Positions 18,595-39,273 of a DNA stretch of 50,933 nt are shown in pieces. The position numbers and the translations under genes are program-made. The notes under the pieces were generated by a model. The model was given only the letters and a program-made list of their open reading frames with translations, was not told the origin of the DNA and made no database searches. This DNA comes from Craspedostauros australis (taxonomy: Eukaryota): positions 1 to 50,933 of the forward strand of contig JALAGF010002054.1 of NCBI GenBank assembly GCA_030167865.1. The letters run 5' to 3'. Each line of letters opens with the position of its first letter. Position 1 is the stretch's first letter.

Positions 18595-20042
18595 CTATGT
18601 ACTATGAAACTTGGTGTTCCTCCGTTGGTTCGTCTCACGAGCGGGATGTGCTCTCGTTTTATCATCGCAAGAAACGTCATGGATATCGTTCACATCAGTG
18701 ATTGGATCAACACGCCCTGATAAAACCCAGATAGAGGAGAGGAGGCCACCCAGACATCGTACGTATGTGCAATTGTCAGAAGCGGAAGTTCGCTACTTTT
18801 GTCAACCGAAGGTTTGAATCACTTGCTTCTTCGGTTAGGGGTTCGCCGGTTGGCATTTGATTGCCCGACGAGCTCTTTGGGCAGAGAGCCCGTTGCTTGG
18901 CGTGATCGACTGCGTCGTCCGCCGTTCCGCCCCAGAGTTCCATTGTTCATTGTTGACAAACAAGAGAGACAGAGAGGGGGCATCGTTCTTGGCGCATTTG
19001 TGCGTGTATGCAAGCAGTTTGATCCCCGATATTCCGTTTTGTTCGTGATTTCTTGGTAGCTGGGCGCAAAATTCCCATTGTCATGATACTTTGGTTTCGA
19101 TGGAGGCGAACATCTCACCATTTCCAAAAGGTACAAGCACAACGTTTGCAAGCCCCCAAGGACTGACCCCACAGTCGCAGAAATGGAAACACCATGCGTG
19201 ACGGCAACGCATCGTTGCCCGCTGAGCGCATCGCTTCACATCATTGGACATGGATGGCAATGGATCAACAATCCCGTGTTTGTGAATTTCCGGCTGCGTT
19301 GGTGGTGGTCTTCCTTGGCGCGTTGGGTGGTGCTGATTCTCTCCTTCTCTTTCGCATCGCTGCGTCTGCTCACGTTTTGCATTTTGCACTTGCATGGGTG
19401 CGATGCACGTCGCCGACATCCGGGGCCGTCTTGAATCGTACTCGTGCCTCCTGCTATACTTTGTTGGCGCGATCAGCACCTACGAGTCAGAATTAGACCA
19501 GAGCAACAGCTGCGCAGCTGGGACTGGAGCGAAGGGTCTCGTGATGATGATGATGACTTGCTTGGCCCTGAAGATACTTGCTGCTTCAGATTCAGTCTCC
19601 GATCGTCCGCACTCGTAGTCGTAGTTGCACTCCTACTTGCACAATCGAAGCGTGAAGTGCCATGGTCGTACCTCTTTGAAGCCCTTCGCTTTGGTGTGTG
19701 CGTCTTGCCTGTTGGGATGGCACCGATCCGTCATGTGCTTCCCCAACAGTGTTGCGCGAATATGCTAGTACCTGCTCCTACAATGCTCATGCACTGGTTG
19801 CATGTTGTATCGTGCATTCCGGGCCTCAGCCAAGGCGCTTGACGTCGAAAGATGCACAGCCATGTGGTGATGTTGTTGCTGCGGAAGCGTGTACTCCAAG
19901 GTCTGCTCGGATCTCGTTGTGAATCAAGGCCTAATTCGTGTGATAATGCAGTGTACTATATTACTCGTAGATCATCGCGATCGCATACGACGTGTTCCCC
20001 CACGGCCGTCTTCGCCCTTGTCGACTCTGCTGCACTCGTGCT

Positions 20043-20750
20043 CTACCATCCCTTCATGGCTTCTCTCGCGTCGATGCGAGCGACTCTGTACGCTGCTGCC
20101 TGACAATGCCGAGTGGCTTGCTGGTACGAGCGAGCGATTCTTGCGGCATCGTTCTCGTCTCCCAGCAGGCCCTGCTGCAGCTCCTGCTCGCTCATCACCA
20201 CGCGCAGCGCAGCCTGGCGGCTCTTCTGCTTCTTCTCGGCGACTCTGGAAACACGGCTTTCCAATCCGCGGATGGTGCTGGTTGCCATCAGCGTGGAGTC
20301 CACGCTGCAGCTTCCGTCGCAGGGCTGGTCCTGCTGCTGCCGCGATGCTGCGATGTCTTTGAGGAGCTGCGTGTCGCTTTCCTTCATCTGGCGCAGATCG
20401 TGCTTGTTGTACCACAGCTGCTGCGTCATCTCGTCGGAGTAATCGTCGAGGCCTGGCACCAGGCGGGCTCTGACGCTGGTGCAGAACGCGACCTGCTTCC
20501 TGGCCTGCTTCATGCTGCAATCGTCGGCTGGCACCATCTGGCGGCACGCGTCCCTCACGTTGGTGTTCGTCGCGTAGTGGTGGCATGCCTTGCGGCCCAC
20601 CGAGATGGTGGAGTGCTCCGATGTCTCCGTAGGATCGGGCGAGGCTGCGGCCGGTGGAGCTGGCGGGACCTTCATGTGGCTCATGGCTCGCTTGGGTTCG
20701 ACGTTGATGACTTGCATCTGCTGTCTGTGCTGTGGTTGTCTTGGGGCCAT
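20043..20750 (-). CDS. Uncharacterised 'VxF-WY-RGLE-EQ' family protein, member 1 (235 aa)
   Basis: RKQVAF...LWYNKHDL...IRGLESR...VMSEQELQ...IARSY...DAREA; aligns with three other ORFs in the window. Confidence 0.85.
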   Translation of the reverse strand: MAPRQPQHRQQMQVINVEPKRAMSHMKVPPAPPAAASPDPTETSEHSTISVGRKACHHYATNTNVRDACRQMVPADDCSMKQARKQVAFCTSVRARLVPGLDDYSDEMTQQLWYNKHDLRQMKESDTQLLKDIAASRQQQDQPCDGSCSVDSTLMATSTIRGLESRVSRVAEKKQKSRQAALRVVMSEQELQQGLLGDENDAARIARSYQQATRHCQAAAYRVARIDAREAMKGW

Positions 20751-22106
20751 GTTGGAGTTGTTTGTTTGTTTGTGATGTGTTGTGTTGTGTGTGCGAGTGT
20801 GGCTGTGAGTGTGAGATTAGCTTGTGTTGGTTGCTGTTTGCGTTTGGTGTGGTGTTCGATTTGTGAGATGAAACGGGGCACAAAGCTGGCTGAGAGTGTT
20901 TTTCTTTGTGTGGCTCAAAATTCGCGTCTGCTTGCCCACAGCACCTCCCAAGCATCCGCTACTCTCCTTTTCCTCTCGTTCTTTTTTCTTCGTTGACACC
21001 GTCCAACCCTGTTCGCCAGATCGCTTCAACACGCAGTTGTCAGCGTCGGCGACGTCCGGCGTTGGGCGCTGGGGATTGGACTTGCCGGAACCCACAAAGG
21101 CGGAGCACGCCGTCTCGTTTCATCAGCGTGACAAGCTCACCAACACGGTTTGTGTTGTTTGTTTGTTGCGCACAGGCTTTTGCTGCGCGTGTCAGACATG
21201 GAGGGCGATCCGGGTTTGTCGAACCGTTTCGGTTAAGTATATTATCGTCCGCGAGGAACAAAGTCCCCGTGATTCCACCATCCAAACACGCCCAAGGAGC
21301 GACGAACCAGAGACAGTCGCTGATACAAAGTCAGACACGAGTGTCAACAGTGTTGATATTTGATTGCAATTCAACTTCCAATTGTGCTGGTTGAGATGTC
21401 GCAATCGGTAGACACTTCTCCTGTTGAGGTACAGATGCCTCTCTGTGATTTCTCAGCGGTACTCCGTTGTCCAATGAGGAGACCGGAATAGGACATGGAA
21501 ATCACCCTGGGACCGATCCCAGTTTTCAGTGCGTCTGTTGCGCGATAGCGCCATGGTCGCAATTGCAATACTCATTCGTGTCCCATTCTCGGGAATGGTA
21601 ATGGTCGATGGAGTCGATTCGGGCTTGAGATCAGCATCCCTGGTCGTGTCAATTTCGTTTAGTCACGTCAATTGGTGAGTGACTGAGTAAGATTGTCGTT
21701 GTTGTCGTTGTTGTTGTCGCCGGAAGGGGGCACTCTCGCAACGCACGCAATCGAACGAGGAGAGTGTTGGTGCCGAGCGAGGAGTCCGCAGAGTATGGTA
21801 CTATACTCTATGCTGATACGAGCATCGGTTGATGTTGCCGCCGGAGTATGTAGAGCGTCTCATTTCACTCCACTCCATTCTACTTCACTCGACGCTTACA
21901 ATCACTGTGAGAAGGTCATGGCATCATGTTGGACATGATGTTGTAAGTAGTGCATTGACTATCGTGAAGCCGAGCATTGTGATGAGTTGTCTAGGTCGTA
22001 TGATCGCGCCCCATGGTATTGTATCACGGAGGACTAATATCCCTAACGAGAAATGGATAAGATCGAGTTTCCACCATCTACGCACTCGACACTGCTCGAT
22101 GCACGC

Positions 22107-23306
22107 TTAGTTGGCGAATCCTCTGTACTCTCCTTTCGACTCGTCGAGATCTGGCGTGAAGCTATCACTCATGTCACCCAAGGCGCCGGAGTCGATGACG
22201 TCCTCCTGCAGGTTGGCCCATTGCGTGGCGACCTGCTTCTCCATCTCGTTCTTCGCCCGGAAGCCGAAGCTCTTGCTGCGGACGCTCTTGAGCTGCGCGA
22301 TGGAAGAGGCCATGAAGCTGCCCACGTACTCCAAATTCTGAATGACGGGGAGGCCGTTCGCATCCACCTTGGCACCGTATCCTGGCACGCATTCCTTGCG
22401 GACGATGGCCGAGGTGAATCCGGCATCCTTCAGGCGAGCCAGCTCGTTGACGAAGGCATTCTCGGCCGGCTTGACCCGAATGGATCCAACGATGGGGATG
22501 CGTTTGGAGAGGGCCTTTGGTATCTGCGGCAATGCGGTGCCGGGAGCGGGTTCGGCCTCCTCGTCCGCATCAGCCTCATCATCGGCAGCTTTCTCGCCAG
22601 CCGTGCTTTCATCAGCATCTGTCAGGGCAACGTTGACCGTCAGCATCACCGAGACCGGGTCCTCCCCGAGGATGTCGGCCACCTTCTCGACCACGATTGT
22701 GACGTCGCTCTCGCTCCACGACTCGGCGGTGGACTCCTCGATGATGATCTCCGGAACGGGCTGCAGGCCGGCGCCGAGCACCATCTCGCACGATGCCGAC
22801 AGATCGCTGGATGCGAGATCGTCCGCGCTGGCAATGTTCTCGCAGGACACGACCATCCCGGTGGCGCCAGCATCTGCAGCTCGCTCCAGCAGGTGCTCCA
22901 TGTCCTCGTCATCATCCGTGTCATCGGAGCTCGCGCAGTAGACGACGGGCAAGGGACCCGGGAACTGGCCACGCGCCTCCTCCTGCTCAGAGCAGATGGT
23001 CCGCAAGGCCGAGATGGCACCGTCCACGAAGATGGCATTGGCGTTGGCCTGCTTCCTCAGCTTGACGGACATCCCGTTGAGGGCGGTGGCCTGCAGCAGC
23101 AGCGCAGTGGGGTTGTCATTCTGGCTGGAGATGTAGATCTCCGGGCTGATCGTCAGCTTGCCCGAAGGCGAGGAAAATGCTCCGAAGCACGCCGCCTTGT
23201 TCTCCTGCGCCGTGCGTCGTGCCGCCAGTCCGGACACTGCAGCAGGCGAAGACAGCAGCACGGTGAACAATGCTGACAGCTGTGCGGCGGTCATGATGAA
23301 CTTCAT
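22107..23306 (-). CDS. Signal-peptide-bearing, probably plastid-targeted, IGPS-like TIM-barrel protein
   Basis: ATG 23306 gives the hydrophobic leader MKFIMTAAQLSALFTVLLSSPAAVSG/LAARR. The alternating strand/helix pattern (ISPEI, AIFV, PVVY, AGATGMVV, GLQPVPEI, IVGSI, AGFTSAIV) resembles indole-3-glycerol-phosphate synthase. The gene itself is well supported; the family assignment is tentative. Confidence 0.7.
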   Translation of the reverse strand: MKFIMTAAQLSALFTVLLSSPAAVSGLAARRTAQENKAACFGAFSSPSGKLTISPEIYISSQNDNPTALLLQATALNGMSVKLRKQANANAIFVDGAISALRTICSEQEEARGQFPGPLPVVYCASSDDTDDDEDMEHLLERAADAGATGMVVSCENIASADDLASSDLSASCEMVLGAGLQPVPEIIIEESTAESWSESDVTIVVEKVADILGEDPVSVMLTVNVALTDADESTAGEKAADDEADADEEAEPAPGTALPQIPKALSKRIPIVGSIRVKPAENAFVNELARLKDAGFTSAIVRKECVPGYGAKVDANGLPVIQNLEYVGSFMASSIAQLKSVRSKSFGFRAKNEMEKQVATQWANLQEDVIDSGALGDMSDSFTPDLDESKGEYRGFAN

Positions 23307-23334
23307 CTTTTCAACGTGCTTCTGCAATGTGTCC

Positions 23335-23377
23335 GTATCGGTATCGGTATCGGTATCGGTATTGGTACTGGTACTGG
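23335..23377 (+). repeat. (GTATCG)n hexamer repeat just upstream of the 23306 start
   Basis: Directly visible. Confidence 0.9.
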
Positions 23378-25543
23378 CAATCGTACTCGTACGGTGGTAA
23401 AAGATGGTGCTGACACTTGGTGTGGCTCGTGGTGAAGTGATGCTCCAGAGAGGGGAGGGAGGCAGGTGGCGATGTACGACGATTCATCGATCACAGCATT
23501 GATGTCCGCGCTTGTTGATGTCTCTTCTTTTGGTGGTGATGGTGATGTCGATGTTGATGTTCTGCCAAAAACGACGATGAAAACGAGCCGAGTACGTTCG
23601 TTTGTCTGGATCGCCAGTGGCGCCAAAGACATCGACGACAGACATGCAGACCGAATGTGTCATTCATGAATAAAGTGTGACGTGAGTGAACAACACAGGT
23701 CTTGACATAGGATGTCCGAGATGTGATTTCAACGAGAATTTGTGCGAGCGGATTAGGGTGTCCCGATATATGAAGACAACAATCAAGCAACGCAGAGCAA
23801 CAAATTGGATCGTTCAGATCAGGACTGAGCCCAGCCCACGAAGCATGTCGAGGAGGGAGCACCGTCCTTCGTCCAGATGAACCAAATGCTGGCTCGACTC
23901 CACTTCACTCCACTAGTGCGAATACTCCGTGAGCTGCTCGAGACGTACCTACTCTACGTGTGCAATATTTTATTTTGTTGGTACTGCGCTGAAGATCTAA
24001 TGTATTTCTATTCGTGCCGATGACTATGCATGCGTGGGTCCTCGGACTGGTCGACGTCACCAGTCCCGCCGGCTGTTTCGCCAAGAGCAGAGAACAAAAT
24101 CGGAGTAGATTGTGTACAAACACGCGTCATACGATTTGCGAGTTGCGAGATGTGAACATGGTGAGTGAAGGCAAGGAGCGAAGTGCGTGTTCTACCTGCG
24201 TTGGAATGCTACGGCAAGCACCAAGCTTTCGCCTTTTTGGCGACATGCGTGATGCGCCACCCGCATTTGCGGTTGCATGTGTGACGTCAATCTTGTCAGA
24301 GTGCAGACATGATTTCGAGAAGAGTGCTGGTGGCAGAAGAGGGAGACGGAACTCGCCAACCGGTGAAACCGTTTTGTCCAGGAGCAAAGAGAAGCGAGCG
24401 TTCCACGCGCAGACAAATCCGTCACAAGAGAACAACCACGAAACCCGCGGTGTGGAAACGCTGGGTCGTGGAGACAAAACTGTGTGTCACAAATTGAAGA
24501 TGTGGAACGGGATGGCATAGATGTTACCTTTAAAATTGAGCACAACACCCAACAAGTCGCAGAGCTGGCGACGGAATGGACGCTTCATTCCTTCCACAAA
24601 TTCAGAGAGAACACAAGATAGAAAATGCAGCAGAAATAGTCCGGGATGTGAACACAAGTTGTGTGCCACAGAAACCAACAATGGCAAACAAGCAAACAAC
24701 AGCAGACTCTCGAGACGTTTTGTATCGTAGCTCGGTTGAAGAAATGGGCTGCGTAGCGGGAAAAAACGGTTGAGGAAGAGAGAATCGTTGAAGGATAAAA
24801 CATGCACTCGAAAGATAGCGGCCTTCTCAGGCATCACCACTAAGAGTGCAATCGCTTATGGCATTGGCATTTCTGGACAGAGCATCATAGAGGCCTCGTT
24901 CCAGATCCCGCGCAGTTTGATACTGTTGATCAGTGCGCAATCGCCGCGGATGTGGCTATAGGTGTGGTGGACGCGGAGTCGGGTTTGTATTCGACGATAT
25001 TTCGTGACGGAAACGCTCCGTCTGTGGTCCCCCTGCCCTGTGCCCTTGCCAGCGCCAGACATCATTTCTCATCCGTTCCGAGTTTGTCTCTGTTGGATGT
25101 CTCGTTCGGCCAACGACGGAGATCATTGACACGACCGCTGGGGGTTGATTGTTCCGCGCGCCACAAGAGACGAGAAGCGGAAAAGACAATTGCTGACCAC
25201 AACCAAGGACGGCAGTCATGCACCGTCTTCAACAACTAAGGATCAGCACCAGCGGAAGGTGTAGCATGCGAAAATCAAGCAACACAATTCCGCGCAGAGG
25301 AGATCATGTGGACGCGTAACTTAATCCTTCTGTTGCGTCGGCACATAACCCCCTCAAACATCGCCGATGCTGCTGCTTCATTGTTCGCTTTTTCATCCGC
25401 TGTATCGTCCTGGGCGAAGACAAACAGCTTGAGAGTCACATGGCGCATCCAAGCCGAAACAACAAGGCCCACAGTTTCGTCACAGAGGGAACAACACTAC
25501 TAGCGACATCCACTTAATTCATCTCATAAAATTCAAAGATCAC

Positions 25544-25763
25544 CACAACACAACACAACACAACACAACACAACACAACACAACACAACACAACACAACA
25601 CAACACAACACAANNNNNNNNNNNNNNNNNNNNNNNNNNNNNNNNNNNNNNNNNNNNNNNNNNNNNNNNNNNNNNNNNNACAACACAACACAACACAACA
25701 CAACACAACACAACACAACACAACACAACACAACACAACACAACACAACACAACACAACACAA
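25544..25763 (+). repeat. (CAACA)n pentanucleotide microsatellite spanning an assembly gap (Ns at 25614-25679)
   Basis: Perfect CAACA units on both sides of 66 Ns; true length unknown. Confidence 0.97.
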
Positions 25764-25794
25764 ATACACAGCCATTATCAACACACCCATCAAC

Positions 25795-26436
25795 ATGACA
25801 ATCGCAAAGACAACAGCTGGCACATCACCGCAAGCAAGGCTTCAGACTCCAACAAGTCTGTACTCCGTCAAAGTTTCCGAGGCACAACCCTCGGCACTGT
25901 CCTTGCCGTCACCACCGGCAGCCTCATTGGCTCTGGGCAGATCATCCGAACACTCCACGATCACCGTGGATGGCCCAATCAAGACAAACTCCAAAGCAGA
26001 CAGGCCAAAGCCATCATCCAGACGGAGGCAAGTTCAGTTCCGTCCCACCGCCTTCGTCCGCAAAATCCCTCACATCGACGACTTCGATGAGGACATGATT
26101 GAATCAATTTGGTACACACCCGATGAGATGAGTCAGATCAAGAATAGCGCGAAGGACATCGTCGAGCGGGTCAAGCTGTTCGGGGTCGTCGGCCTGCGCA
26201 AGGACGAAACGCTCCGCGGCTTGGAGTGCAGGTTGCCGGCAAACGTCAAGAGGCGCCTGCTGGTCAAGAACGACGCCTGGGATGCCGTGCTCAACGAGCA
26301 GGAAAGGCAATGGGATGCCTTTGAGCAGGACCAGGAGGTTCTGGCCAAGGCGTACGAACCGATCGCGCGCCGTGCACAGCACGCTGCCTTTCAAGTGGGT
26401 CGGTCAGATTCCCGGGAGGCACAGAGGGCGGCTTGA
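25795..26436 (+). CDS. Uncharacterised 'VxF-WY-RGLE-EQ' family protein, member 2 (213 aa)
   Basis: RRQVQF...IWYTPDEM...LRGLECR...VLNEQERQW...LAKAY...DSREA. Confidence 0.87.
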   Translation: MTIAKTTAGTSPQARLQTPTSLYSVKVSEAQPSALSLPSPPAASLALGRSSEHSTITVDGPIKTNSKADRPKPSSRRRQVQFRPTAFVRKIPHIDDFDEDMIESIWYTPDEMSQIKNSAKDIVERVKLFGVVGLRKDETLRGLECRLPANVKRRLLVKNDAWDAVLNEQERQWDAFEQDQEVLAKAYEPIARRAQHAAFQVGRSDSREAQRAA

Positions 26437-27548
26437 GCATGGCTCGGAGGATGGCGCAGTTACGGCCACCGCCACGACCTACTATGATATTGCATTAATG
26501 GTTCTCGGTCGGCGATGACAGTACTGCAACTATACTAAGTACCAGTCCATTTTCTTCAGAAGCCATCAAGTATTGCATAGCACTCCACAATACCATACCA
26601 TACCGCAGCTCATACCACATCAGACTTGCACACCACGCACACATACGCGCACATCCGGGCATGCTCGTATCTATTCCATAAATTATATTGTAATAACAGC
26701 ATTGACTAGAAAGCCAATCGATGTAGCCTACCATCTGCTATGGGTTTGTTCCATAGCCTACTTCGTGTAATCACCAGTGAAGCTCTACATTCCATGACAC
26801 CGACGGGTCATACAGACAAGCATGTGTACGTACACTGCTCGTAATGCACAACTAGGACGAGCTCTGGGACACACACGCACGAGCAATGCCGCACGCAGCA
26901 AGCTCACGAGTATAGCGGATCCAAGTCATACCACGTGACAAAGATCGCATCAGCATTGATGCAGAGACATGGTGTGGCGATAGCAAATTGCACACTCGTC
27001 CCCCAATGTACGCGCATAGTACCTATTCTATTCTACATACAGACAGTGAAGTATTCTAATACTTTGTCTGATGGACATGACGCCGCCACGCAAGCAGACA
27101 AGTCTGTGTTGCTCGCGCTTGCGTGGCCACAACTTCAAGCACAGGAGAGCGTATCATCTCTGGATGCGCTCTGGCATAGTTGGAATTGCCTTGTTCGTGG
27201 AACGAAGTTAGTCTGCGCGCGGCCTACACGAGTGCTCGCACTGGCGACGTTCGTCATACCGTCCAGACTCATCCGCAGCCGAAGGATGAAATCTGGGCAT
27301 GACCAGAGCAAGGGAATGTGACAGAGCGACTCTGGCGGCGATAACGCATTGGAAATGGGAGCCATGGCACCAAAGCTCGTACACAATAGGTCGCATGATG
27401 CACGTGATGGCACGACTACATGTGCGTTGATTGAGAAAGATGGAGATCAGTGGCATTCCTTCCGCAGCGGCTTTTTGGCCGCCACCTCATTCATGCCGGC
27501 CGAAGAGGCGGTCAATGTTGCATGCAGAGAGGAGAGTCCCCAACCTGT

Positions 27549-27550
<2 letters not shown>

Positions 27551-27585
<35 letters not shown>
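27551..27585 (+). repeat. (AG)n microsatellite
   Basis: Directly visible. Confidence 0.95.
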
Positions 27586-27588
<3 letters not shown>

Positions 27589-29497
27589 CGCGAACTGCTC
27601 GTACGAGTACAAGCAATGGGAGGTGATCCTTCTCCCATCCGGTTTGCTTTCAGGCCATGATACTCCTGGAGGTGCTCGTACTTGTACTCGTACTTTTTCT
27701 ATTACTACGATCTATTCTAGAATATTCTATATCATTATTACGACCACCACACTGAACGGTCCACAGCCTGCCTTGTGCGTGAGTGGGTGATGGACGTGTG
27801 TCCATCTGCATGCCAACATTCCGTGTGCGAGTATGTGCGCTTGGTCGACGACCAAACCGGATGCCCCATCGCCCAAAAGGCCACGGGGGGCTGTCACTCT
27901 CTTGGTTCTGGTTTGCGCTCCCCACGACGCGCAGCTGCCTGACGAAATGGGAACGACACAACTTCTGCGATGGCATCTGATAAATCTTGGAGATCTTCGA
28001 ATCGGCGCGAACATGCACAAACAAGAAGCTTGGGCAAACCCGAAGCAAGGCAAACATCAACGATTCGCCCAGACCGACGCCAAAGAACTAAGACTTCTCC
28101 CAAGTTGCGCAGAGTGAGCGGAGGGCGGAAGGCGAAACCTCCTGTCTGCTCATGGGTGGAGCAACTCGGAGAGTAGAGGGGCGGAGACAGAGATAGATAG
28201 ATAGATAAAGAAACAGAGAGAGAGAGAGAAACAAGTAGCCACAAGCCAGAAAAGATGATGTTCCAATTGCAATCGACTCTCAGTACCTCCCGGGGAGTTG
28301 TAACTTGCGTGCAGTGATGTTTCGGAGAGCGTTCACCGCATCGTACCATGGTCAGCAACTGCTCTCTCTTGCGTCCAGTATCGGCACGCAACAAGTGGTA
28401 CACAGTACGATGATAGGCCACGATGGCGTCTGCTCTGCTCCACTCTTTTCTGTTGGTCTTCGTCGTAGCTCGTGTTGGTGTCCTGTGGTCTGCCCAATCC
28501 TGGTGTGTATTGCGGTGGTTCGTGTTAGGTTTGTGTGCGGGTAGAACAATCGAGACTACTATATTCGGCGGAGATCCATGACCGCGTCGTCATAGAAGTG
28601 CAATGACTGGTATTCGCGTTTATCATGTTCGCTATTTGGTTTCGCTGTGGTTGCGGTCGTTCATGAGGAACAGTTGTCTTCCGACCGAGGAACGGAGTGG
28701 TCATTGTTGCCTGCTTGGTTGCCTTCTTTGTGAACGCTTGCTTCAAATTGTAATGACTGGACCGTGTCTCTCTCTTTTGTGGCGCGTGCATCTGCTGGTG
28801 TTTCTTAAGCGTGACGAAAAAGCGAAGTTTACGACTGCAGTGACGATCTTCGCGGACGCGTATCACACAACAAACACTTCAACACAACGAACAGCACTGT
28901 GCTGCGACGTGTGTTGGGCAGTCCTCGTGCGACTATTTCAGTGGATTCATAGTTAAATCCATTTGCGTGCTTCTGAGTCTGGAACAGGAAGTTTGTGACA
29001 CGCTGTTCCGCAGAACCCGAGTTGAAGTTCCACCAAAGAAAGGCCCAACGGAATTGAGACGTGTCTCTCAAAAGTCCGGCCACAAAACATGAACCAAAAC
29101 CGCCAAAAACGAAAATCGAGAGTGAAAACGGATAAGACGCCCGCGCGATGGTGGCGGTGTCGATGCATCCGCGAGTGCTGTGGACTGGGAAAGTCGGTCG
29201 ACAGCAGCGTGGCGCTGGCCGATGATACTCTTCTGACACACACGAGTACCACGTCCGCGCAGTGGCGCGCCTGTGTTGTGCGCACAGGGTCAACAAAAGC
29301 AGAGAGGCAAAAGAAGCAGAGGGGCTCGTGTGTGATCATGGAAATGGACTCGCGATGGACACAACGTCCACACGTCAATGATCCGTTGAGCTCACAAAAC
29401 GTTCATCACCAACCATCACATACTCCATTCAGCACCCGTCTAGCACCCGTCCAGTACCCGTCCAGCACATTCAGCACGCACACAACAAATCACAGCA

Positions 29498-30211
29498 ATG
29501 TCACCGAGTTTTGAAGTAGGAGTCATGATGCGAGGACGCAGCAACAGCACCGCCAGCAGCCGCAGCATGAACGGTAGTCTCAGCAGCATGAACGGTATCA
29601 TGAACGGCAGCATGCACAAGATCGTCGATGACGATAGCAGCGGGCTGGTGACTTTGGACTGCGACGACTATTCCCTGCTGTCATCCAGCTCCTTCCATTC
29701 GTCCGCAACCACGTTGAACCACTCCGTGCGCTCCGACAGGGTCATGCAAAGAACGAGTAGCTACAGTCGCAAGATCTCCAAACGAAGGGTGTCCTTCGCT
29801 GAACGGAGCCACCTCATCATCGAGATCCAGGATGATCGAAGCAACGATGATGCGGATCCTCATGATCATGCTGACGCCCAAAGCACATGGTACTCCAAGC
29901 AAGAGCTGGAAAGCATCAGGAACGAGAGCGGCGAGCTGGCTGAGATGTACAACGCAGGAAAGCCGATGGATTTGCGCAACGACTGCTTCCGCGGTCTGGA
30001 GTCTCGCATCCTGCCGGCATCGCAGAAGAAGATCCGGCTCAAAATGAAGGATCGATGCATCGGTTTGGTGCTGGAGGAGCAGCACCGGCAATGGAGCAAC
30101 GCCGAATGGGACCCCGACCAACTGGCTCGCATCTCGCTCAGGGAGACGCGGCAGTGCCAATCCATCGCATTCCGGCTAGGGCGAGCTGACTACCGCGAGG
30201 CCCGCAAGTGA
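29498..30211 (+). CDS. Uncharacterised 'VxF-WY-RGLE-EQ' family protein, member 3 (237 aa)
   Basis: KRRVSF...TWYSKQEL...FRGLESR...VLEEQHRQW...LARIS...DYREA. Confidence 0.87.
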   Translation: MSPSFEVGVMMRGRSNSTASSRSMNGSLSSMNGIMNGSMHKIVDDDSSGLVTLDCDDYSLLSSSSFHSSATTLNHSVRSDRVMQRTSSYSRKISKRRVSFAERSHLIIEIQDDRSNDDADPHDHADAQSTWYSKQELESIRNESGELAEMYNAGKPMDLRNDCFRGLESRILPASQKKIRLKMKDRCIGLVLEEQHRQWSNAEWDPDQLARISLRETRQCQSIAFRLGRADYREARK

Positions 30212-30213
30212 TG

Positions 30214-30240
30214 GGCTAAGCTGAGCTGAGCTGAGCTGAG
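30214..30240 (+). repeat. (GCTGA)n repeat immediately after the stop codon
   Basis: gctaagctgagctgagctgagctgag. Confidence 0.85.
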
Positions 30241-30967
30241 TCCTTGCGACCGTTGGCACCAACCTTCACGTTGAATGCATTCATTGGAATGCCTTCTTCT
30301 TTTCCCTCCTCTTTCTTCTGGTGCTCTACGATCCACCGTCCATCCACACTCAGTCACTCGCGCTCGTTCGCACCGCTCCCAATATTGATCTTGGCTGCCC
30401 CTCCAAGCATCCGCATGATACTATAAGAGGGCAACGCAGGGGAGTAGCGAACGAAGATTTTGACACATTCATTCTACGATAATATAATACCACTTTAACT
30501 GGAATATCTCCACACCCCCATTTTCTTCTTTCCCATGTTCATTGTCGATCATGCATCGCTTCCGTATGGATACCAAACATGAGCGCTGTCCGTCCGCGTC
30601 CGAGCACGCGTACTAGCATGGTAGCGGAACAAGGATAGTGAAGCGCCAGCAGTACCTCGTGCCCAAGACGTGGTGGGACTGAGAGCACTTTGCAGCTTGT
30701 AGATCGAACCTGGGCTTTCGAGGAGCTCGAGCAGCCTTGGCTTGTGGGTTGATCATGGGTATGCGCAGTTGGCAAGCTTCTTCGTCCTTGTGGCGGGCAC
30801 GCACCTCGCCGTCATGGTCAGCGACAAGGACCACCGTTGGTTCAGTCGAGCTCATCGGAATACTCGCGGTCTTGTTTTCTGTTGATGAGTGCTTTGTTGC
30901 GATTGAGGTTGAGGTTGCTGTGGCTTGCCGCCGCAGGCAGGAAGACATCGGAGGGCAGATGGTATAC

Positions 30968-33475
30968 TCAGTCCAGCAATTCAAAATCCTGCCTGGCTTC
31001 GCACATGTCGGTCGTGGTGTTCCAAGTGCAAGCGCCCAAACAAAGCCGCATCAGGTTGGTGCTGTTGGTGGTGCTGTTGCCTTGGCTTGCTAGTATATCC
31101 GTCGTGTTGCATCCGCTGTTGCTGCTGCTGTTGCTGTCAACGTCGCTGCTGTTGCTACAGTTGCCTCTCTGCATCCATTCGTCCATGCTGTCCAGGGGGA
31201 TGATCCAGCCATCATCTGTGACGAAAGGACACACGTCGCACGACGATTCGTACACGCTCATGTTGCAGGCCACGTAGCTCGTGTTCACGAATTCGACCGC
31301 AGGCTCCTCCTGGCGTTCGCATACATCGGAGTACGGATCGCAGCACACATGGCAGCACGAGCAGACCGTGTGCGACAGCCGCCGTCCATCCAGCGTCGAA
31401 CCTGCGCAGTTGCTCCACAATGACTCAAGGTGCGGATGCCGTTCCGCATCGCAAAAGATGCCGTCCAAGTTCCCAACAATCTTCGTTCGCTCAATCTCGA
31501 ATGACACGAGGGAGGTGAGTTGGCCAAGCTCTGTGGGCACCGTGCCTGTCAGTCCGTTTTTGTACAAGGTGAGGTTGGTGAGATTTGTGAGCGCCCCAAG
31601 CTCAGATGGGATTGGCCCCGTCAGCTGGTTCGTGCCAAGCCCCATCGATCGGAGGTTGGTCAACCGACCCAGCTCGGTCGGGATTTTGCCCATGAGCCGC
31701 CCGGTGTCGAGATACAGCGTTTGCAGGCTTGTCATTTGTCCGATCTCCGGGGGAATCGGTCCCTCCAATTGAGATCCGACAAACATTAGGGTCGTCATCG
31801 CGTCCATGTCGAATATCCACGGGGGGAGCGTCCCGCTGATGGTGACGGTGGCGTTAGCATCGGCGAACACGGCCAGCACCTCCAAGTCTTCGAGGTGGGA
31901 GATCTCTGGTGGGATGGGGCCATCCGCGTTGCTGTCAATATCAACCACGATGCCCAAGACGGTGGCATTCGAGTTGCAGAAGATGCCATTAAAGGGCAGA
32001 TCATTCCAGGCGCAGATCCCATTGTTCGACATGGCGTCAAACTGATTCAACCAATTCGGACCATTCCATGATCGGTACATGCTCGCGACACAGTAGCGCT
32101 CCAGCAGGAAGTGAATGTAGGCGTCGTCGCCGTTAGCGTCGGCTGCTTCGTCGTTGCTGCTGCCCAACAGCACGTATAGGCTGCTCAATATATCGGTGTT
32201 GGCCATCCAGTCGATGATCTCGTACGGAATGGTGCTGGTGTTGACAAAGGTGGATGAGTCGAGGTTCGTCGGTGCCCCCATGAGGACCGGGCTGAGCTTC
32301 TCGACGATGGTGAAGAACATGTCACTCTGGTCGATGGAGCTTTCGGTCGGCGCATGCGTGGGTGAACCGCTCGGCATTGTGCTCGGCGCTGTGGTCGGCC
32401 TTGTGCTTGGTATTTGGGATTGCCGACCTGAAGGTACGGTGCTGGGTTGCTTCGTTATCGTTGGTCGCTGCGACAGCGACAGTAGCAGCGATGGAGAATG
32501 CGAGTACGACTTTGATGAAGCCATGGTTGGCGATGCTGATGTGGTTGATAATGTGGATGATGGCGGTGGCACTGTTGACGGTGGCGATGGCTGTGACGTT
32601 GGTGGTGGGATTGTCGGTGGTGCCGTTGGCACTCTCGTTGGTACCGACGCATTGCTCTGCTTCGAGTCGTTGTCGTTGCTGCCATGGCTTTGATCGTTCA
32701 GAACAACAACGGCTGCGACGATGACACCAGCCACGACGACAACGATCAAGGCCAGAATCACAGCGATCACCAGCCTCCGTCGCCTGCGAGCAGACGGGTC
32801 CGTGGCGGCTTTGGAAGACTGCCTCTTGTTCCGATGGATAGCATCCTCCAGTTCTGAGCTGCTTTCACCAACATTCATCGTCTGGGAAGATCTGCCGTCC
32901 GCAGTTGCGCCTTGGGAGGGACCATCGCCATGAAGGTCAGCGGACGTCGGCACCGGAGAAGTATCCGCGCTGGCATCATCGTCGGTGTGACGAATGTCAC
33001 CATGCATCAACGATCTCGCGTATCCATCCACGACAGGCTCCGCCACGGCCATGGGTCGATCATGCAGCCGCTGCTGCACTTCCAAATCCACCCTGCTCTC
33101 AAATTCGCGTTCCATCTGCTGCGCGATCTCCTCCCGAAGTGCGATGCGCATCTCATCCTGCGTGGGGGCGAGCTCGGCCACGACCGAGGCCTGCGAGGAT
33201 GGAACACCGAGCAGACGACCATCATCGGATGAAGCAGCGACGGAGGCGAGTCTGCTGCTTGCACCCAATGTGGATTCCATGCCGGATTCCAAACCGGATT
33301 CCAAGCTGCCTTCTCCGCCACGCGGACCATCGTTGCAACTCCTCACATTGTTGTTGTCGTCGCCATTGTTGCCACTGCTGTTGCTGCTCCTGTTGGTCCG
33401 GTCTAGATCGGAAGGCGGTCCCAGGCGCACACGGGGCAGCAGGATATCTGGCAGGACTTTCTCCGAGGGCTTCAT
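30968..33475 (-). CDS. Type II membrane leucine-rich-repeat protein (receptor-like, no kinase; 835 aa)
   Basis: Disordered N-terminus, RRRRR followed by TM LVIAVILALIVVVVAGVIVAAVVVL, Pro/Thr/Ser stalk, LRR N-cap (ERY...W...C-x-W...GIFC), plant-type LRRs (LxGxIPxELGxLTNLxxLxL) and CSCCHVCC C-cap. Confidence 0.92.
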   Translation of the reverse strand: MKPSEKVLPDILLPRVRLGPPSDLDRTNRSSNSSGNNGDDNNNVRSCNDGPRGGEGSLESGLESGMESTLGASSRLASVAASSDDGRLLGVPSSQASVVAELAPTQDEMRIALREEIAQQMEREFESRVDLEVQQRLHDRPMAVAEPVVDGYARSLMHGDIRHTDDDASADTSPVPTSADLHGDGPSQGATADGRSSQTMNVGESSSELEDAIHRNKRQSSKAATDPSARRRRRLVIAVILALIVVVVAGVIVAAVVVLNDQSHGSNDNDSKQSNASVPTRVPTAPPTIPPPTSQPSPPSTVPPPSSTLSTTSASPTMASSKSYSHSPSLLLSLSQRPTITKQPSTVPSGRQSQIPSTRPTTAPSTMPSGSPTHAPTESSIDQSDMFFTIVEKLSPVLMGAPTNLDSSTFVNTSTIPYEIIDWMANTDILSSLYVLLGSSNDEAADANGDDAYIHFLLERYCVASMYRSWNGPNWLNQFDAMSNNGICAWNDLPFNGIFCNSNATVLGIVVDIDSNADGPIPPEISHLEDLEVLAVFADANATVTISGTLPPWIFDMDAMTTLMFVGSQLEGPIPPEIGQMTSLQTLYLDTGRLMGKIPTELGRLTNLRSMGLGTNQLTGPIPSELGALTNLTNLTLYKNGLTGTVPTELGQLTSLVSFEIERTKIVGNLDGIFCDAERHPHLESLWSNCAGSTLDGRRLSHTVCSCCHVCCDPYSDVCERQEEPAVEFVNTSYVACNMSVYESSCDVCPFVTDDGWIIPLDSMDEWMQRGNCSNSSDVDSNSSSNSGCNTTDILASQGNSTTNSTNLMRLCLGACTWNTTTDMCEARQDFELLD

Positions 33476-33761
33476 GCTGATCTGCTACGGTGGTCCCTTG
33501 CCGAACACCTCCACTCCAATGCACGTCCTTCTTCTTTGAGCACGCGGGGGGATATGGGTGTGTTGGTCCCAATGTGCAGTTAGCGATCGATATGGAGTAT
33601 AAGGTGATGTAATACAATATAATGGTAGAGAGAGTGCAGTGCAGCAAAGAGTTCTGGGTCCAAAGGCCTCTAGATTGCATCCGTAGGCTACGCACGGGGC
33701 GTTTTGACTGGTTTGCGGCCCTGTCCTTCGACTTTGCCGCTGTTGTTGGTGCTTGTCCTGC

Positions 33762-33800
33762 TGCTGATGGGTGCTGATGGGCGCTGATGGGTGCTGATGA
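33762..33800 (+). repeat. 10-bp tandem repeat (GCTGATGGGY) x ~4
   Basis: gctgatgggtgctgatgggcgctgatgggtgctgatga. Confidence 0.85.
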
Positions 33801-34875
33801 ATGCGATGTCTGCAATCGGTGCCCAGAGAGGAGTCTGAGTGGAAGAGAGCCAGGCTCTGCACAAGGCCAGCGATCAGGAACCAGCAATGCCGACAACACC
33901 GACGTAAATGATGTCAACGAAAGTGGCAATGAAAACCAGGGCGATGGCAGCCCGGTGTCTTGGTGTCGCAGGAGGCAATGTGCTGCTGCCTCTTGCAGTG
34001 CGATGCCTCTTGTCCTGCGTGAGCGGGTGCTGAACGACGCTCTTTGGGGTGAAGTGATACGAGGGATGATGGCGACGATGGAAGCCAAAGCGAGGAGCAA
34101 TCTGGCTTGCATCAGCGAATTCACACCAACAACACGGGGCACGAGTCCTGTTGTTTCCAATGTTTCTCACAAACGTGACCTCTGTCGCAACGCTAGCGAT
34201 TCGAATGATACAATTTTCAAAGAACTTGTTTTGGAAGAAGGCTCTCCGATTGTCCCAGTTCTGGTTCGTAAATGCATTTCTGTTGATTACGGCCCATTAA
34301 AAGCCCAAATGAAAGCTGAAAATATGCACAACAACGATAAAAAAGTTGTTTGGGGTTTCAATAATCATGTTATGAATCACTTCTGGTGGTGGAGCTGACG
34401 TGACTGCCGGCACATTGAAATCGAGAGTTTTGGTCGAAGTAATCCATGACATCGCTTGGTGGATGTGGCGATGGTTGTCTGTCTGTTTGATTTTATGGTC
34501 GGAGAGTTGTCTGCGAGTCCTTTCCAGTGCGAAACAGTCACAGTGAGAAGTGTCGACAGAAAACAGACAGGGATACACATACATACATATGTACAGACAT
34601 ACATATAGACAGACAGATATAGATGTATAGAAAGACAGACATAGAGAGAAAACTTGGGGGGCGGAACACGCGCAAACGAAGAACACATGGTGCTGTCTTC
34701 ACTGGTCGCCATGTGTGGGCCATTCCGCACGCGTCTTCTCGCCAACGCGGCCTGCCGAGCAAACAAGCGGACAAGCTAATGAGGAGGTGGAGGCTATGCA
34801 GGACGGCTGAACAAACGCTGGTACACGATCGTGGCATGCTCGCATGGGATGAATCGAATGAACGGAAAAATTCAC

Positions 34876-36297
34876 CACGTGGGGTGGCTATGAAAACGGG
34901 TTGGAGCGATTAAGCTTGGCTGTTTCGTCGTGAACAGCGTTCGCAGAAGGGGATGAGGAGCACACGTGATTGGGACGGATCTCTGGACAGGAAGCAAAAA
35001 GGTTCTTTGGATGATTCGCAGGTACAAAAACAGACCGGACTGATGCGACTCGTGATCGAAGCATCGTATGGCGGGCAAGAGAAGTCCTCCCACGTGTGTT
35101 GTAAATACGCCCGTCGCAGCAAGAGGGGAAGGCGGATTGAGACTTGGTCGCCACGAACACACGAATGATTTGGTATTGATCGAACGAGTCGATACCAGGA
35201 CGAAGTTGCTGGCACCAACACTCACAGTAAAGTACTGTCCAAACGGTAACTTCGCCTCTCCTCCAACATTGAACTGCCCTCTTCGTTCACAAGTTAAACG
35301 TTGCTGTTGTCGATGGACCACTTCGCATGGAGGCTTCTTGCGACCGCCCAATTAGAGCGGGGACCTTTGCTCTTCCATGGACGTGAGCAGGCGCGCAAGC
35401 GAAGGTTGCGATGCCCTGTTTTAGAATCCCTCGTGACTCCTGTTCTGCTCTACGATCTGTGCAAGCGCATCAATGTTGCAAGAAGGATGTTGCAACAACT
35501 CCGGCACCGGATGATACAACAGTGACAAAGCTCGAATGCGAAGTGAGAAAGACAGAGCGAGAGAGAAACCTCTCTGTTGCGGACCCGCGAGCGGTGACAC
35601 GCGCTGCATGGATCTGGGGACGAAGATCTCTGCTTGCGATCATCTTCGAACAACAGGTCTGGAACTCGGTGCTGCTACGGTTGCTGTCTGTGCTGTTGTT
35701 GCTGGTGCTATTGCGTTGGGTTTGTCAAGCGACGGAATGTTGGACTCCACAACAACGAACCTGGCGGGAAGGAGATAATTTTGACGTGTCGGAGATGCGC
35801 AGTCTGGACTGTTAGCGTCTGATGGTTTTACACGTGGTCTGGCCGTTCTGTGGAAGCCCATTTCGTCTTGGGCCCTGTCCTGGTGGGCCAACGTGGAACA
35901 TTTTGGAAGGGGTTGCCCCAGAGAAAGGCTAAGCTTGCATACAGGGCTTCGACGAGCGATTCTATTCGCAGCATCATTTACGGGACCGTCAGCTGTCTCT
36001 TCGCGGAGGACGAAGACGAAGATAAACAAGCGACCAGGCATCAACCGTCAGTGACTAAATGTCGGTAATGGGCATAGTTGTGCAGGTACAAGACAAACAA
36101 CGACTAAATTGGCATAATTATGGCCACGTCGTTCGCTAAGGAAGGGTCCATGTCGTAGTACCCACGCCGCGCTGATCGTCCATCCACGTTGTTTCGCACG
36201 TCGTTTGGTGCTGTTGATTGGTGGGGAGGCCTGCTTCGGGACGCCAAACCTCCCTGCGAATGCGCACACCCGCGTTCACTTCCACCATGGTCACGTG
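34876..36297. promoter_or_regulatory. Cluster of five palindromic CACGTG (G/E-box) motifs in a divergent intergenic region
   Basis: CACGTG at 34876, 34963, 35091, 35831 and 36292; function is inferred only. Confidence 0.35.
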
Positions 36298-36792
36298 GTG
36301 GTGTGATTGCGAGCGCGATGTACGCGTGTGGTAGATTGTGCACGGACGCGCAAGTACACCGCAGTTGTTGTATCCGCAGACACGAAGTCACGCAAATTTG
36401 TGGGGCTTTGTACATCACAGTTCCCTCGTTTGTCCAACCACACCAACAGGACCAAAGATGCATCAAAGCCCTTCACGAGATCAACAGCAGCGCCAACAAC
36501 ACGCATGGTTGGTAGGCAGATCACCGTTTGTGTGCCACAACAAACAGCGACGACATTGCGTGTCTGAAACGATCGCAAGGAAACCACGAAAGTTAGTTGG
36601 TACGAATACGTTCCAACACAGACCAAGCAGAATCCTCATAACTTCATGAGCATTGAGGCCAGCAACAACAGAAAGCACAACAGTCATATCAGTACCATAC
36701 CATCATAGAATACCATCGGACCATCATAACACAACTCACAACACACAATTCAATACGATTGCATGGTCTAGAGCGTACTCTTGCACAACAAG

Positions 36793-39273
36793 ATGATAGC
36801 TACCACAGGCATGACGACGACCAGCATCCGTCTGCAGTGCGCACACAGCATGTGCATGACAAAGACCTGCGCGGACCCCTCCTCACAACCTCCCGTGCAG
36901 CCCTGCAGACGGAGGAGCAGCTCCAGCCACTACAGGCTGAGCTTCACGCATGCTTCCAACCCTCGCTCCACCTGCGCGCCGTCCATGCACTCCACAGCTG
37001 GCGCTGCGGCCATCGCTGCCCTGGCCATCGTGAATGGCAGCGGCCGCGGCAGTCTGCTCAGCGAAGACGGAGTGGATGAGATGGGTGTAATGGGTGAGAT
37101 GGACGAACTGCGCAACAGCGCAACATGCTCCACCTTGCAGAGCAGCAGCCGCCAGGGACGCAGCATCCACCGCACCAGCATGCTGAGCAACCAGGGCAGC
37201 GGGCACCACAGAGGCGCCTCCCGCGAGTTCCCCCCGCTGAAGGCCATCCGCACGTTCCACCAGATGACCTCGTCGCGCAGGATCAGCGATCTGGACGATG
37301 AAGAGGGGGACTTCGACTTGGACGAGGAGACGGTCAACGCGGATGATCTCATGCGCTTCACCAGCAACGCTTACTACGGTCGCTGCTACGAACGTCTGCA
37401 GGTGCTCAAGATCGCCAAGCGACGCGAAAGCGAGATCCATCCCAACGACGAGATCGTGTGGGATCCCGCGGATTGGGAGGGCGATGACGAGATCTGCGAT
37501 AGCTCTCACGCGCCCGTCACCTGCGGGGCCATGTACTACGAGGCCGATGAAGATGACTCCATCCACCACTCCCTCTGCGACTCTGTTCATGTGAAGGCTC
37601 GTTCCGCACCGTCTACACTGCCTGCACTGTCTACACTGTCTACACTATCTACATTGACTGAACCTGCTGCGGGTGCACTGTCTGCATCCTTCAGCAACTT
37701 CAACCTCAACACCAACATGAATGGCAACACCACTAACAACAACAGGAGCAAGAACAACATGAATAACACAAGCAAGGGCTATCAGAGAAGCTGCCTTCCT
37801 CCCACCAAACCATGTCGACGACCCAACCGCCGATCGATAGGACAGCAGTTCAAACCCAACCGCCTCAACTCCGAGCAGACGGCGCCCACCGTTGCCTCCT
37901 CCGTGGACTACGAGCAGGAATACCGCCATCAGCAACAGCAGCAGTACCAGCAACACGCCCAAACCAGCTTCAGCGAGGCTGATGGAGACGATGATATCAT
38001 CGATGACAGCACCTGCGACTATCAGCAGCAGGAGATCGTGGACGACAGCCACGACCACAGCAACACGGAACATGACCAGGAACATGAGCAGCAGGAGGAG
38101 GAAGACGAGGTCGATGATGACTTCGTGGACTACCCGCTCCATTTGCAGCCTGTCTCGTCCTCGCATGCCGTCATCCGCCTTCTCGCTCACAACGAGCACA
38201 ACAACCGCCATCAATACGACTGCGGTGAGAAGAAGGTCAGCGAAGATGAGGATGCGGCGACTGCAACGGACATTGATGACAGCGACGATCACGATGTGGA
38301 CTGCTTCGATATCGCCGATGGGTTGGACATCGTGCGTGAGGCAGCGCAGCGCATGCAAGTCATTCAGGCTCTGCCGCGTGCATCTGCGAAGAAACGACAG
38401 CTCAGCGATGGCACCACTGCCAGCCGGGCGACCATCACGGCAAGCAACACCAGCAGCCTCCAGGCCAACCGCATCCAGGCCAACACCAGCAACACTGCTC
38501 TCGATGCTGTGAAGAAGACCAAACGACAACGCCGCGTTGTGCGGTTTGCCTGCAACGTCCGAGTACGCAACGCCCTCTCCTTGAACGATTACACGCCCCT
38601 GGAGATGCAGCAGTGCTGGTACCAAGACGAGGATTACGACGCCATCATCCGGTCCTCCTACCATCTCATCCATCTCTACGAAACGGTGAGTCGCCGCAGT
38701 GCACACACCAACAACAACAACGATGACATCAACGACAGCGACCACGATGCGAGTGATCCCATCGTCAGCGTCGACATCGATGACAACGGCATTCACAACG
38801 ACGACACCATCCGCGGCCTCGAAAAGATGACCGCGGATGGCCTGCGCAGACGTGATCGCCGTCGCAACAAGGCCTACGGCGCCGTCCTCGAGGAGCAGGA
38901 GGGACAGCGCAACGAGCATGGCCACGTGGATGCGCAAGTGCTGGCGGAAGTGTATTACGCCATCTCATCCAAGTGCCAGAAACGTGCCAGGAAGGTGGGC
39001 AAGGCGGATGCCGCCAGTGCCATGGAGATTCATAACGAAGCCGAAAACAATGATGATGCTGATGGTGATGATGCTGCTGCTGATGAACCATCATCCTCCG
39101 AGCTGCTCCTACCATCGTCTTCGCCAGAACACAATGGTGCAAGCAACGATCACATCGACTCCTCGCCAACCCTGCCGGTTAGAACGCGGGCTCCTCTCAC
39201 TCTGGAGACGGACATCAACCCAATCCCAATCTCCAATCCGAAATGTTTCAGCCCAGTCGCTCGGGCTGCCTAA
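36793..39273 (+). CDS. Large acidic low-complexity protein with C-terminal 'VxF-WY-RGLE-EQ' domain, member 4 (~826 aa)
   Basis: Long open frame with first ATG at 36793. RRVVRF...CWYQDEDY...IRGLEKM...VLEEQEGQ...LAEVY...DAASA. Confidence 0.87.
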   Translation: MIATTGMTTTSIRLQCAHSMCMTKTCADPSSQPPVQPCRRRSSSSHYRLSFTHASNPRSTCAPSMHSTAGAAAIAALAIVNGSGRGSLLSEDGVDEMGVMGEMDELRNSATCSTLQSSSRQGRSIHRTSMLSNQGSGHHRGASREFPPLKAIRTFHQMTSSRRISDLDDEEGDFDLDEETVNADDLMRFTSNAYYGRCYERLQVLKIAKRRESEIHPNDEIVWDPADWEGDDEICDSSHAPVTCGAMYYEADEDDSIHHSLCDSVHVKARSAPSTLPALSTLSTLSTLTEPAAGALSASFSNFNLNTNMNGNTTNNNRSKNNMNNTSKGYQRSCLPPTKPCRRPNRRSIGQQFKPNRLNSEQTAPTVASSVDYEQEYRHQQQQQYQQHAQTSFSEADGDDDIIDDSTCDYQQQEIVDDSHDHSNTEHDQEHEQQEEEDEVDDDFVDYPLHLQPVSSSHAVIRLLAHNEHNNRHQYDCGEKKVSEDEDAATATDIDDSDDHDVDCFDIADGLDIVREAAQRMQVIQALPRASAKKRQLSDGTTASRATITASNTSSLQANRIQANTSNTALDAVKKTKRQRRVVRFACNVRVRNALSLNDYTPLEMQQCWYQDEDYDAIIRSSYHLIHLYETVSRRSAHTNNNNDDINDSDHDASDPIVSVDIDDNGIHNDDTIRGLEKMTADGLRRRDRRRNKAYGAVLEEQEGQRNEHGHVDAQVLAEVYYAISSKCQKRARKVGKADAASAMEIHNEAENNDDADGDDAAADEPSSSELLLPSSSPEHNGASNDHIDSSPTLPVRTRAPLTLETDINPIPISNPKCFSPVARAA

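Follow-up and report, generated by a model that had tools for sequence, protein, structure and literature searches.

A stretch of 50,933 nucleotides from the diatom Craspedostauros australis (contig JALAGF010002054.1 of assembly GCA_030167865.1; hereafter the window) carries four genes which, judging from sequence comparison, are probably members of a diatom-expanded family of putative regulatory subunits of protein phosphatase 1 (PP1). Each encodes a domain that opens with an RVxF-type motif, the short docking string of PP1 regulators, and continues through a tryptophan, an RGLE loop and a predicted helical hairpin. The preliminary description of the window had proposed that these genes form a lineage-expanded group of PP1-docking proteins. 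As far as predicted docking is concerned, every sequence test named in that description agreed with this proposal, in which the proteins may be either targeting or inhibitory subunits.

The four open reading frames (ORFs) were found where that description had placed them, contain no internal stops and are real, intact paralogues. Members 1 (20043..20750, minus strand; 235 amino acids), 2 (25795..26436, plus strand; 213 amino acids) and 3 (29498..30211, plus strand; 237 amino acids) are single-ORF genes with the domain at about 20046-20513, at 26008-26433 (the stretch used for fold prediction) and at about 29768-30208, respectively. Member 4 (36793..39273, plus strand) is an ORF of 826 amino acids, in which a low-complexity N-terminal part of about 575 residues precedes the domain (about 38518-39036) and an acidic insertion stands before RGLE. 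In pairwise blastp comparisons the four align over about 140-170 residues with 23-32% identity (E 1e-6 to 2e-21). The pattern VxF...W[YFW]...[RI]G[LI]E has exactly four matches in the six frames of the window, all at these genes, and a 103-sequence profile recovered them again (E 2e-37 to 2e-48), with no fifth member below E 0.1. Each protein has a single RVxF-type site, on the N-terminal border of its domain: KQVAF in member 1 (20484..20498, minus strand; residues 85-89), RQVQF in member 2 (26026..26040, plus strand; residues 78-82), RRVSF in member 3 (29783..29797, plus strand; residues 96-100) and RVVRF in member 4 (38533..38547, plus strand; residues 581-585). The Trp of the WY pair of member 2 lies at Phe+24, and its RGLE (26215..26226, plus strand) forms the loop ahead of the long predicted helical hairpin.

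The ordered signature that had been claimed for the domain stands in the four-way alignment for V, F, W, Y, RGLE, V, EQ, Q, D, A, Q, A, D and A, which are invariant, but its element [LI]A-x-x-[YI] fails in member 3, which has LARIS at this place. Member 3 is the most deviant of the four, with a 7-residue insertion between RVxF and WY, no DY and an indistinct V-x-V; the other three do possess the DY or DF ascribed to them. Low-complexity N-terminal tails that differ from member to member were likewise found, and members 1 and 2 indeed share EHSTI[ST]V (EHSTISV at 20598..20618, minus strand, and EHSTITV at 25948..25968, plus strand). This string recurs in two further copies of the genome and in one or two public ones, and marks a subgroup. 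In the form SEHST[IVM][ST] it is seen in the disordered N-terminal tails of members 1 and 2, L006, L028 and P0036, where it could be a second short docking or phosphorylation motif.

The family is unnamed, diatom-expanded and far larger than the preliminary description had supposed. A one-query search of the 65.9-Mb genome gave 84 matches from 115 candidates, on 66 contigs, a figure that is not a copy number, as some contigs are near-duplicates and the search gives a lower bound. From 100 fetched loci (partly overlapping, and with some apparent duplicates among the 84 omitted), 70 rows remained after near-identical copies were collapsed, and 69 distinct domains once one second-half row was removed; the genome of C. 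australis holds at least 69 distinct copies of the ~140-residue domain. Among public sequences clustered at 50%, 6,438 representatives matched a profile of the four window domains at E <= 0.001, 2,090 of them at 1e-10. Public members are mostly small (median 221 amino acids), and all that carry an organism name are from diatoms (Stauroneis, Craspedostauros, Nitzschia, Pseudo-nitzschia and Fragilariopsis, the last with FRACYDRAFT_234694), the names being those of the best matches and most members carrying none. In the ESM Atlas, 30 of 30 matches had no common Pfam family; the top three scored 0.96, with Bacillariophyta commonest. Two domains are present in 27 of the best 150 public matches. Tandem two-domain proteins occur also in the C. 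australis genome (G000:C2099, with L015 and L079, and C3826, with L080); each domain usually has its own RVxF, and such proteins could bind two PP1 molecules.

A match to an already characterised domain had been named beforehand as a finding against the proposal; in Pfam and in the PDB no such domain matched. No Pfam match above cut-off was obtained for the four window proteins, the 103 aligned members or 30 longer members, and the whole-domain profile gave one chance match to PDB sequences (E 1.8). A word-index homologue search with member 2 yielded 272 candidates, none at E <= 0.001, whereas HMMER searches did find relatives. Among the listed results of searches in the open-access literature, nothing describes the family or a PP1 regulator from diatoms, although the family may stand as an unnamed orthogroup in the gene-family tables of published diatom genomes. 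The Seminavis genome paper (PMC7335047) describes tandem expansion of signalling families as common in raphid diatoms, and the word 'phosphatase' does not occur in its main text.

Conservation of the putative docking motif

Conservation of V and F across the wider family had been set beforehand as a check, and both proved conserved: among 167 public domains V is present in 86% and I in a further 7%, and F in 95%. K/R stands three positions before V in 62% and two positions before it in 84%; the x between V and F is mostly S, R, T or H. After the Phe follow V at about F+4 (55%) and V/I at about F+6 (77%), and then H (74%), D (61%), Y/F (76%), E (78%), W (95%) and Y (83%), while the RGLE columns reach 97% (R), 100% (G), 89% (L) and 98% (E). 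The conserved string can be written as [KR][KR]x-V-[STRH]-F-x(3)-V-x-V...H..DY..E...WY; a helix comes next, and after it RGLE and a hairpin of helices.

As these 167 domains were ranked by a profile containing the motif, which entails a selection bias, the search was repeated without it. For this purpose the own genome was searched with a query that starts two residues before the Trp; 30 of 52 matches were fetched, and a strict RVxF, [RK]x(0,1)[VI]{P}[FW], was sought in the 53 residues upstream. It was present in 19 of 23 distinct copies and in 1 of 19 control windows. Leaving aside the four window members and one copy at a contig edge, 15 of 18 copies have the strict motif, and the three misses retain hydrophobic-x-Phe. 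Across the whole genome the strict motif occurs in 61 of the 69 distinct domains (after two hand corrections, and with RAIRF of L021 counted in). Among public proteins it occurs in 133 of 150, against a mean of 32 (maximum 46) after shuffling; when a hydrophobic-x-hydrophobic element is added, the figures become 109 of 150 against 9.

The surroundings of the motif point in the same direction. A background of 31 VxF sites from 11 other proteins of the window was compared with 62 own-genome family sites, the family sets being partly biased by the query: K/R stands one or two positions before V in 56 of 62 family sites and 6 of 31 background sites (p 1e-11), and x is polar or basic in 57 of 62 and 14 of 31 (p 2e-6). 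An acidic residue, Pro or a bulky residue at x was met in 1 of the 62. These features agree with the RVxF consensus [KR]-x(0,1)-[VIL]-{P}-[FW], which PMC10731240 gives together with the PP1 pocket residues; at the level of sequence, the context of the motif is that of PP1 sites and unlike that of VxF in general.

The genome has three PP1 catalytic loci. In P0155, the one isoform checked, 21 of 21 surface residues from the RVxF, phi-phi (the hydrophobic element after RVxF), Arg and Trp/hydrophobic-groove sites are identical to those of human PP1, most of the positions being taken from published passages, and the PP1 of the genome shares 95-97% identity with PP1s from named diatoms. The PP1 isoform encoded on G000:C333 (L031) diverges more and has an N-terminal extension rich in Ser and Pro.

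Comparison with known PP1 regulators and predicted fold

In Phactr1 (PMC7599070), F522 of the RVxF is followed by phi-phi at 527-530, W542 and a helix at 545-565, and both Phactr1 and spinophilin leave the active site of PP1 open. The order RVxF, phi-phi, Tyr, Trp and amphipathic helix described there is the same in the family. The diatom proteins have in addition an RGLE/hairpin body of about 90 residues, which the Phactr1/spinophilin type is without. Pfam and PDB searches found no RPEL, PDZ or Phactr homology in the family, and no fold match emerged. As the family lacks a conserved Arg motif and has a longer spacing of Phe and Trp, a Phactr-like way of working is at best what the layout suggests, and membership of the Phactr family is rejected.

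With GADD34 and CReP (PPP1R15A/B) and with viral proteins of the ICP34.5/DP71L type the family shares an RVxF and, in matching register behind it, a V-x-V. This likeness stops after 16 residues, and the family has no sign of the eIF2alpha-binding part. When a profile of 39 N-terminal modules was run against 177,635 PDB sequences, the top match was the GADD34 peptide 4xpn_B (E 0.38, not significant); the modules had been chosen for their RVxF and the unselected whole-domain profile has no 4xpn match, so that this result illustrates the likeness and does not prove it. The second match, ILHVNGYSEEE of G-alpha-s (E 0.67), was not accepted as homology and is taken as a chance likeness of helix N-caps. 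Among named clusters of the ESM Atlas, those closest to the family have PF10488 (PP1c_bdg) in 16-29% of their members, at scores of 0.87-0.88, which are below 0.9 and provide leads only. For the N-terminal module, the nearest named Atlas neighbours (0.87-0.89) are proteins of 69-87 amino acids from large DNA viruses, some with PF10488; these small viral proteins are possible mimics of PP1 docking, again as a lead only.

The CSRNP family, a distant Atlas neighbour (0.76), has an RVxF and a hydrophobic pair as in the diatom family, along with the SILK motif that is rare here. A CSRNP-like gene is present in the genome (G000:C3167, L064:1054-2613, plus strand), with KHVTF, a GGWPLG stretch, a Cys-rich tail and a weak PF16019 match (E 5.5e-4); its product is a candidate PP1 regulator of another type. 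As the motif set of L064 differs and its score against the family profile is at noise level, membership of the family in CSRNP was rejected.

AlphaFold2 predicted the domain of member 2 from an alignment of 103 sequences with a predicted local distance difference test (pLDDT) score of 93.7 and a predicted template modelling (pTM) score of 0.70. The model has helices at residues 28-34, 38-62, 77-103 and 109-141, the helix after the Trp starting 3 residues past it, and no secondary structure in residues 1-22, which comprise RVxF and V-x-V. The preliminary description had named burial of V and F in the fold as a finding that would speak against docking. A weak test of this was a model without residues 1-22, which has the same helices (pLDDT 95.6, pTM 0.74) and a body predicted equally well. 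In fold searches against the PDB and viral models, Foldseek found no match at E <= 0.001, which does not prove a new fold, and the best Z from VIA, 7.8 over 69 residues, reflected generic hairpins only. The oomycete 'WY domain', which the WY pair had suggested, was discarded, as the family yielded no PDB match by sequence or fold.

Proposed mechanism and rival explanations

If the family behaves like Phactr1, spinophilin and GADD34, its V and F would enter the RVxF groove of PP1, V-x-V would add a strand to beta-14, and the Trp would pack near I133/Y134, with the next helix lining the hydrophobic substrate groove. Holoenzymes with the PP1 catalytic subunit would thereby be formed. RGLE, V..EQ..Q, Y, A and D are near-invariant over thousands of otherwise divergent paralogues, and the helical body therefore probably meets one shared partner, be it PP1 or a third subunit common to the members, while the variable surfaces and tails may set location, timing or substrate choice. 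Ser or Thr occupies x in 23 of the 62 own-genome sites and 90 of the 167 public sites and might act as a phosphorylation off-switch; phosphorylation abolishes RVxF binding, according to PMC11536154.

The specificity of PP1 is set by its subunits, and animal PP1 regulators are mostly unrelated proteins. A different arrangement can tentatively be proposed for diatoms, namely that one massively expanded homologous family constitutes a combinatorial phosphatase code, in which a clamp of RVxF, phi-phi and Trp together with a new helical body is placed on the substrate grooves of PP1, at least 69 distinct domains facing three catalytic loci here and thousands existing across diatoms. If this is true, dozens of paralogues would form a main layer of diatom signalling, and a conserved folded body beside the docking string would be a new way to remodel the PP1 surface. 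The proposal would make the function of a large, unannotated diatom family (6,438 clusters at 50% identity) open to test; the members are, as far as the literature found goes, the first candidate PP1 regulators in this group.

Several observations weigh against PP1 docking. RVxF is short and common, with 120 pattern matches in the six frames of the window, and 8 of the 69 own-genome domains are off the strict consensus, one of them without the Phe. SILK stands upstream in only 4 of 150 public proteins. The Arg motif that Phactr1, PNUTS and spinophilin have between phi-phi and Trp lacks a conserved counterpart, as Arg stays at or below 11% in every column between F+9 and F+24 of the 167 public domains, and the distance from Phe to Trp is 24 residues, compared with 20 in Phactr1, the two Trp residues being presumably equivalent. 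With the whole-domain profile no PP1 regulator was retrieved from the PDB at E <= 10. PF10488 is not among the families listed for the four window proteins, 103 members (25 of 59 families) and 39 modules; a search of the genome with the PF10488 model had no match anywhere and is uninformative. Nor is PF16019 (CSRNP_N) among the Pfam families listed for members. Finally, the model of the monomer is also confident at residues 11-30 (pLDDT 87-94) and the spacing of Phe and Trp is tightly fixed, both of which would equally be expected of an intramolecular fold.

This last consideration leads to an unlikely alternative, in which the domain is an autonomous helical module for dimerisation, scaffolding or ligand binding, and VxF is an intramolecular anchor or the site of another partner, its likeness to RVxF being incidental. 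Apart from the confident prediction near the motif, the alternative draws on the position of the Trp, at Phe+24 in 118 of 127 public members, and on the fact that conservation is strongest in the helical body, where covariation among 262 sequences supports an internal fold (A+79/Y+105, z 7.6; R+59/D+123, z 6.0; numbered from the Phe); covariation is also found within the short loop-helix before the Trp. Yet the interval from VxF to Trp tolerates long insertions and deletions with both motifs retained (L007, L028, L076, L077 and member 3), the prediction of the body is no worse when the VxF segment is left out, and the basic flanks and the restriction at x fit the groove of PP1 and not a buried strand. 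The V, F and V-x-V columns are also absent from the top 35 covarying pairs, although near-invariant columns leave such an analysis little power. Far less credible is the idea that the copies are products of a repeat or mobile element without a protein function of their own, which is already largely refuted. High copy number, clustering and the lack of introns in the four coding frames would suit it; on the other side, 0 of 84 matches have an internal stop, sets derived from the transcriptomes of other diatoms contain relatives (MMETSP/EukProt names), and no Pfam transposon domain was found in 30 longer members. Moreover, most copies are 23-38% identical and have nevertheless kept the motifs, which indicates old duplicates under purifying selection.

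If PP1 binding is accepted, the next question is what the subunits do. That they confer targeting or specificity is a possibility that we hold tentatively and favour over pure inhibition, a preference that is weakly supported. Inhibition is the unlikelier answer: the members would mainly be PP1 inhibitors or sinks, with the long helix or the RGLE loop lying over the active site, and induced copies might switch PP1 off under given conditions. Most members are indeed small and without a fused substrate-binding domain (0 of 30 longer members above the Pfam cut-off), and the invariant polar residues R, E, E, Q, Q, Y and D suggest one common target surface. There is also a precedent in inhibitor-2 (PPP1R2), which according to PMC11536154 docks on PP1 through RVxF and SILK and spans the active site with a long helix; RVxF and a long helix are present in the family, which is mostly without SILK. 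On the other hand, neither the whole-domain nor the N-terminal profile matched inhibitor-2 structures by sequence in the PDB, and the layout of Trp plus helix resembles that of Phactr1 and spinophilin, with their open active site. A general inhibitor, furthermore, has no need of 69 or more divergent copies per genome, and inhibitor-2 is a low-copy gene, in contrast to the dozens of copies of the diatom family.

The local cluster and its neighbours

The presence of four copies in 51 kb exceeds the uniform expectation of 0.065 (Poisson p ~7e-7, post hoc). Contigs C2099 and C2070 also hold four matches each, and 30 of the 84 matches share their contig with at least one other; clustering is usual for the family, and the four-gene cluster in the window carries the least weight in the result. 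The nearest relatives of member 3 are on two other contigs (50-51% identity; 95-97 in the Shimodaira-Hasegawa-like approximate likelihood ratio test, SH-aLRT), and quick trees of 65 and 59 rows did not group the four members. A tree forcing them together was not rejected (approximately unbiased test, p-AU 0.178; 59 rows, with 11 partial or long-branch rows dropped). The four are old duplicates; a recent tandem origin is neither shown nor refuted by these trees.

The upstream gaps of 1.4-3.3 kb had been taken as a sign that each member is under separate transcriptional control. Their lengths were confirmed (1,356, 2,488, 3,061 and 3,317 bp), but the inference was rejected, since gaps of this length are usual in the window, where 12 other gene calls have upstream gaps of 492-3,317 bp (approximate, ORF-based bounds). 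In two of the four cases the gap is common to the member and a divergent neighbour. In a run of guessed RNA status, contigs covered 19984-20352, 38913-39043 and 39100-39262, which correspond to 3' portions of member 1 and member 4, whereas members 2 and 3 had no such cover; this result was not used as evidence.

Among the other genes of the window, an IF-2B family gene (eIF2B subunit; 39789-40844, minus strand) lies tail to tail with member 4. GADD34-PP1 acts on eIF2alpha, but the gene is treated here as a chance neighbour. A leucine-rich-repeat protein of 835 amino acids (30968-33475, minus strand), with a stretch resembling a membrane span ahead of the repeats, is encoded between members 3 and 4. 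At 14406-17327 (minus strand) there is a potassium-channel-like protein of 973 amino acids with ion-transport, cyclic-nucleotide-binding and ankyrin domains, a layout we take to be that of plant AKT1-type Shaker channels. Two clearly similar ORFs of about 450-490 amino acids without a Pfam match above cut-off (1256-2728 and 6120-7478, both on the minus strand) flank an acidic ORF with a C-terminal hydrophobic stretch (4376-5662, plus strand).

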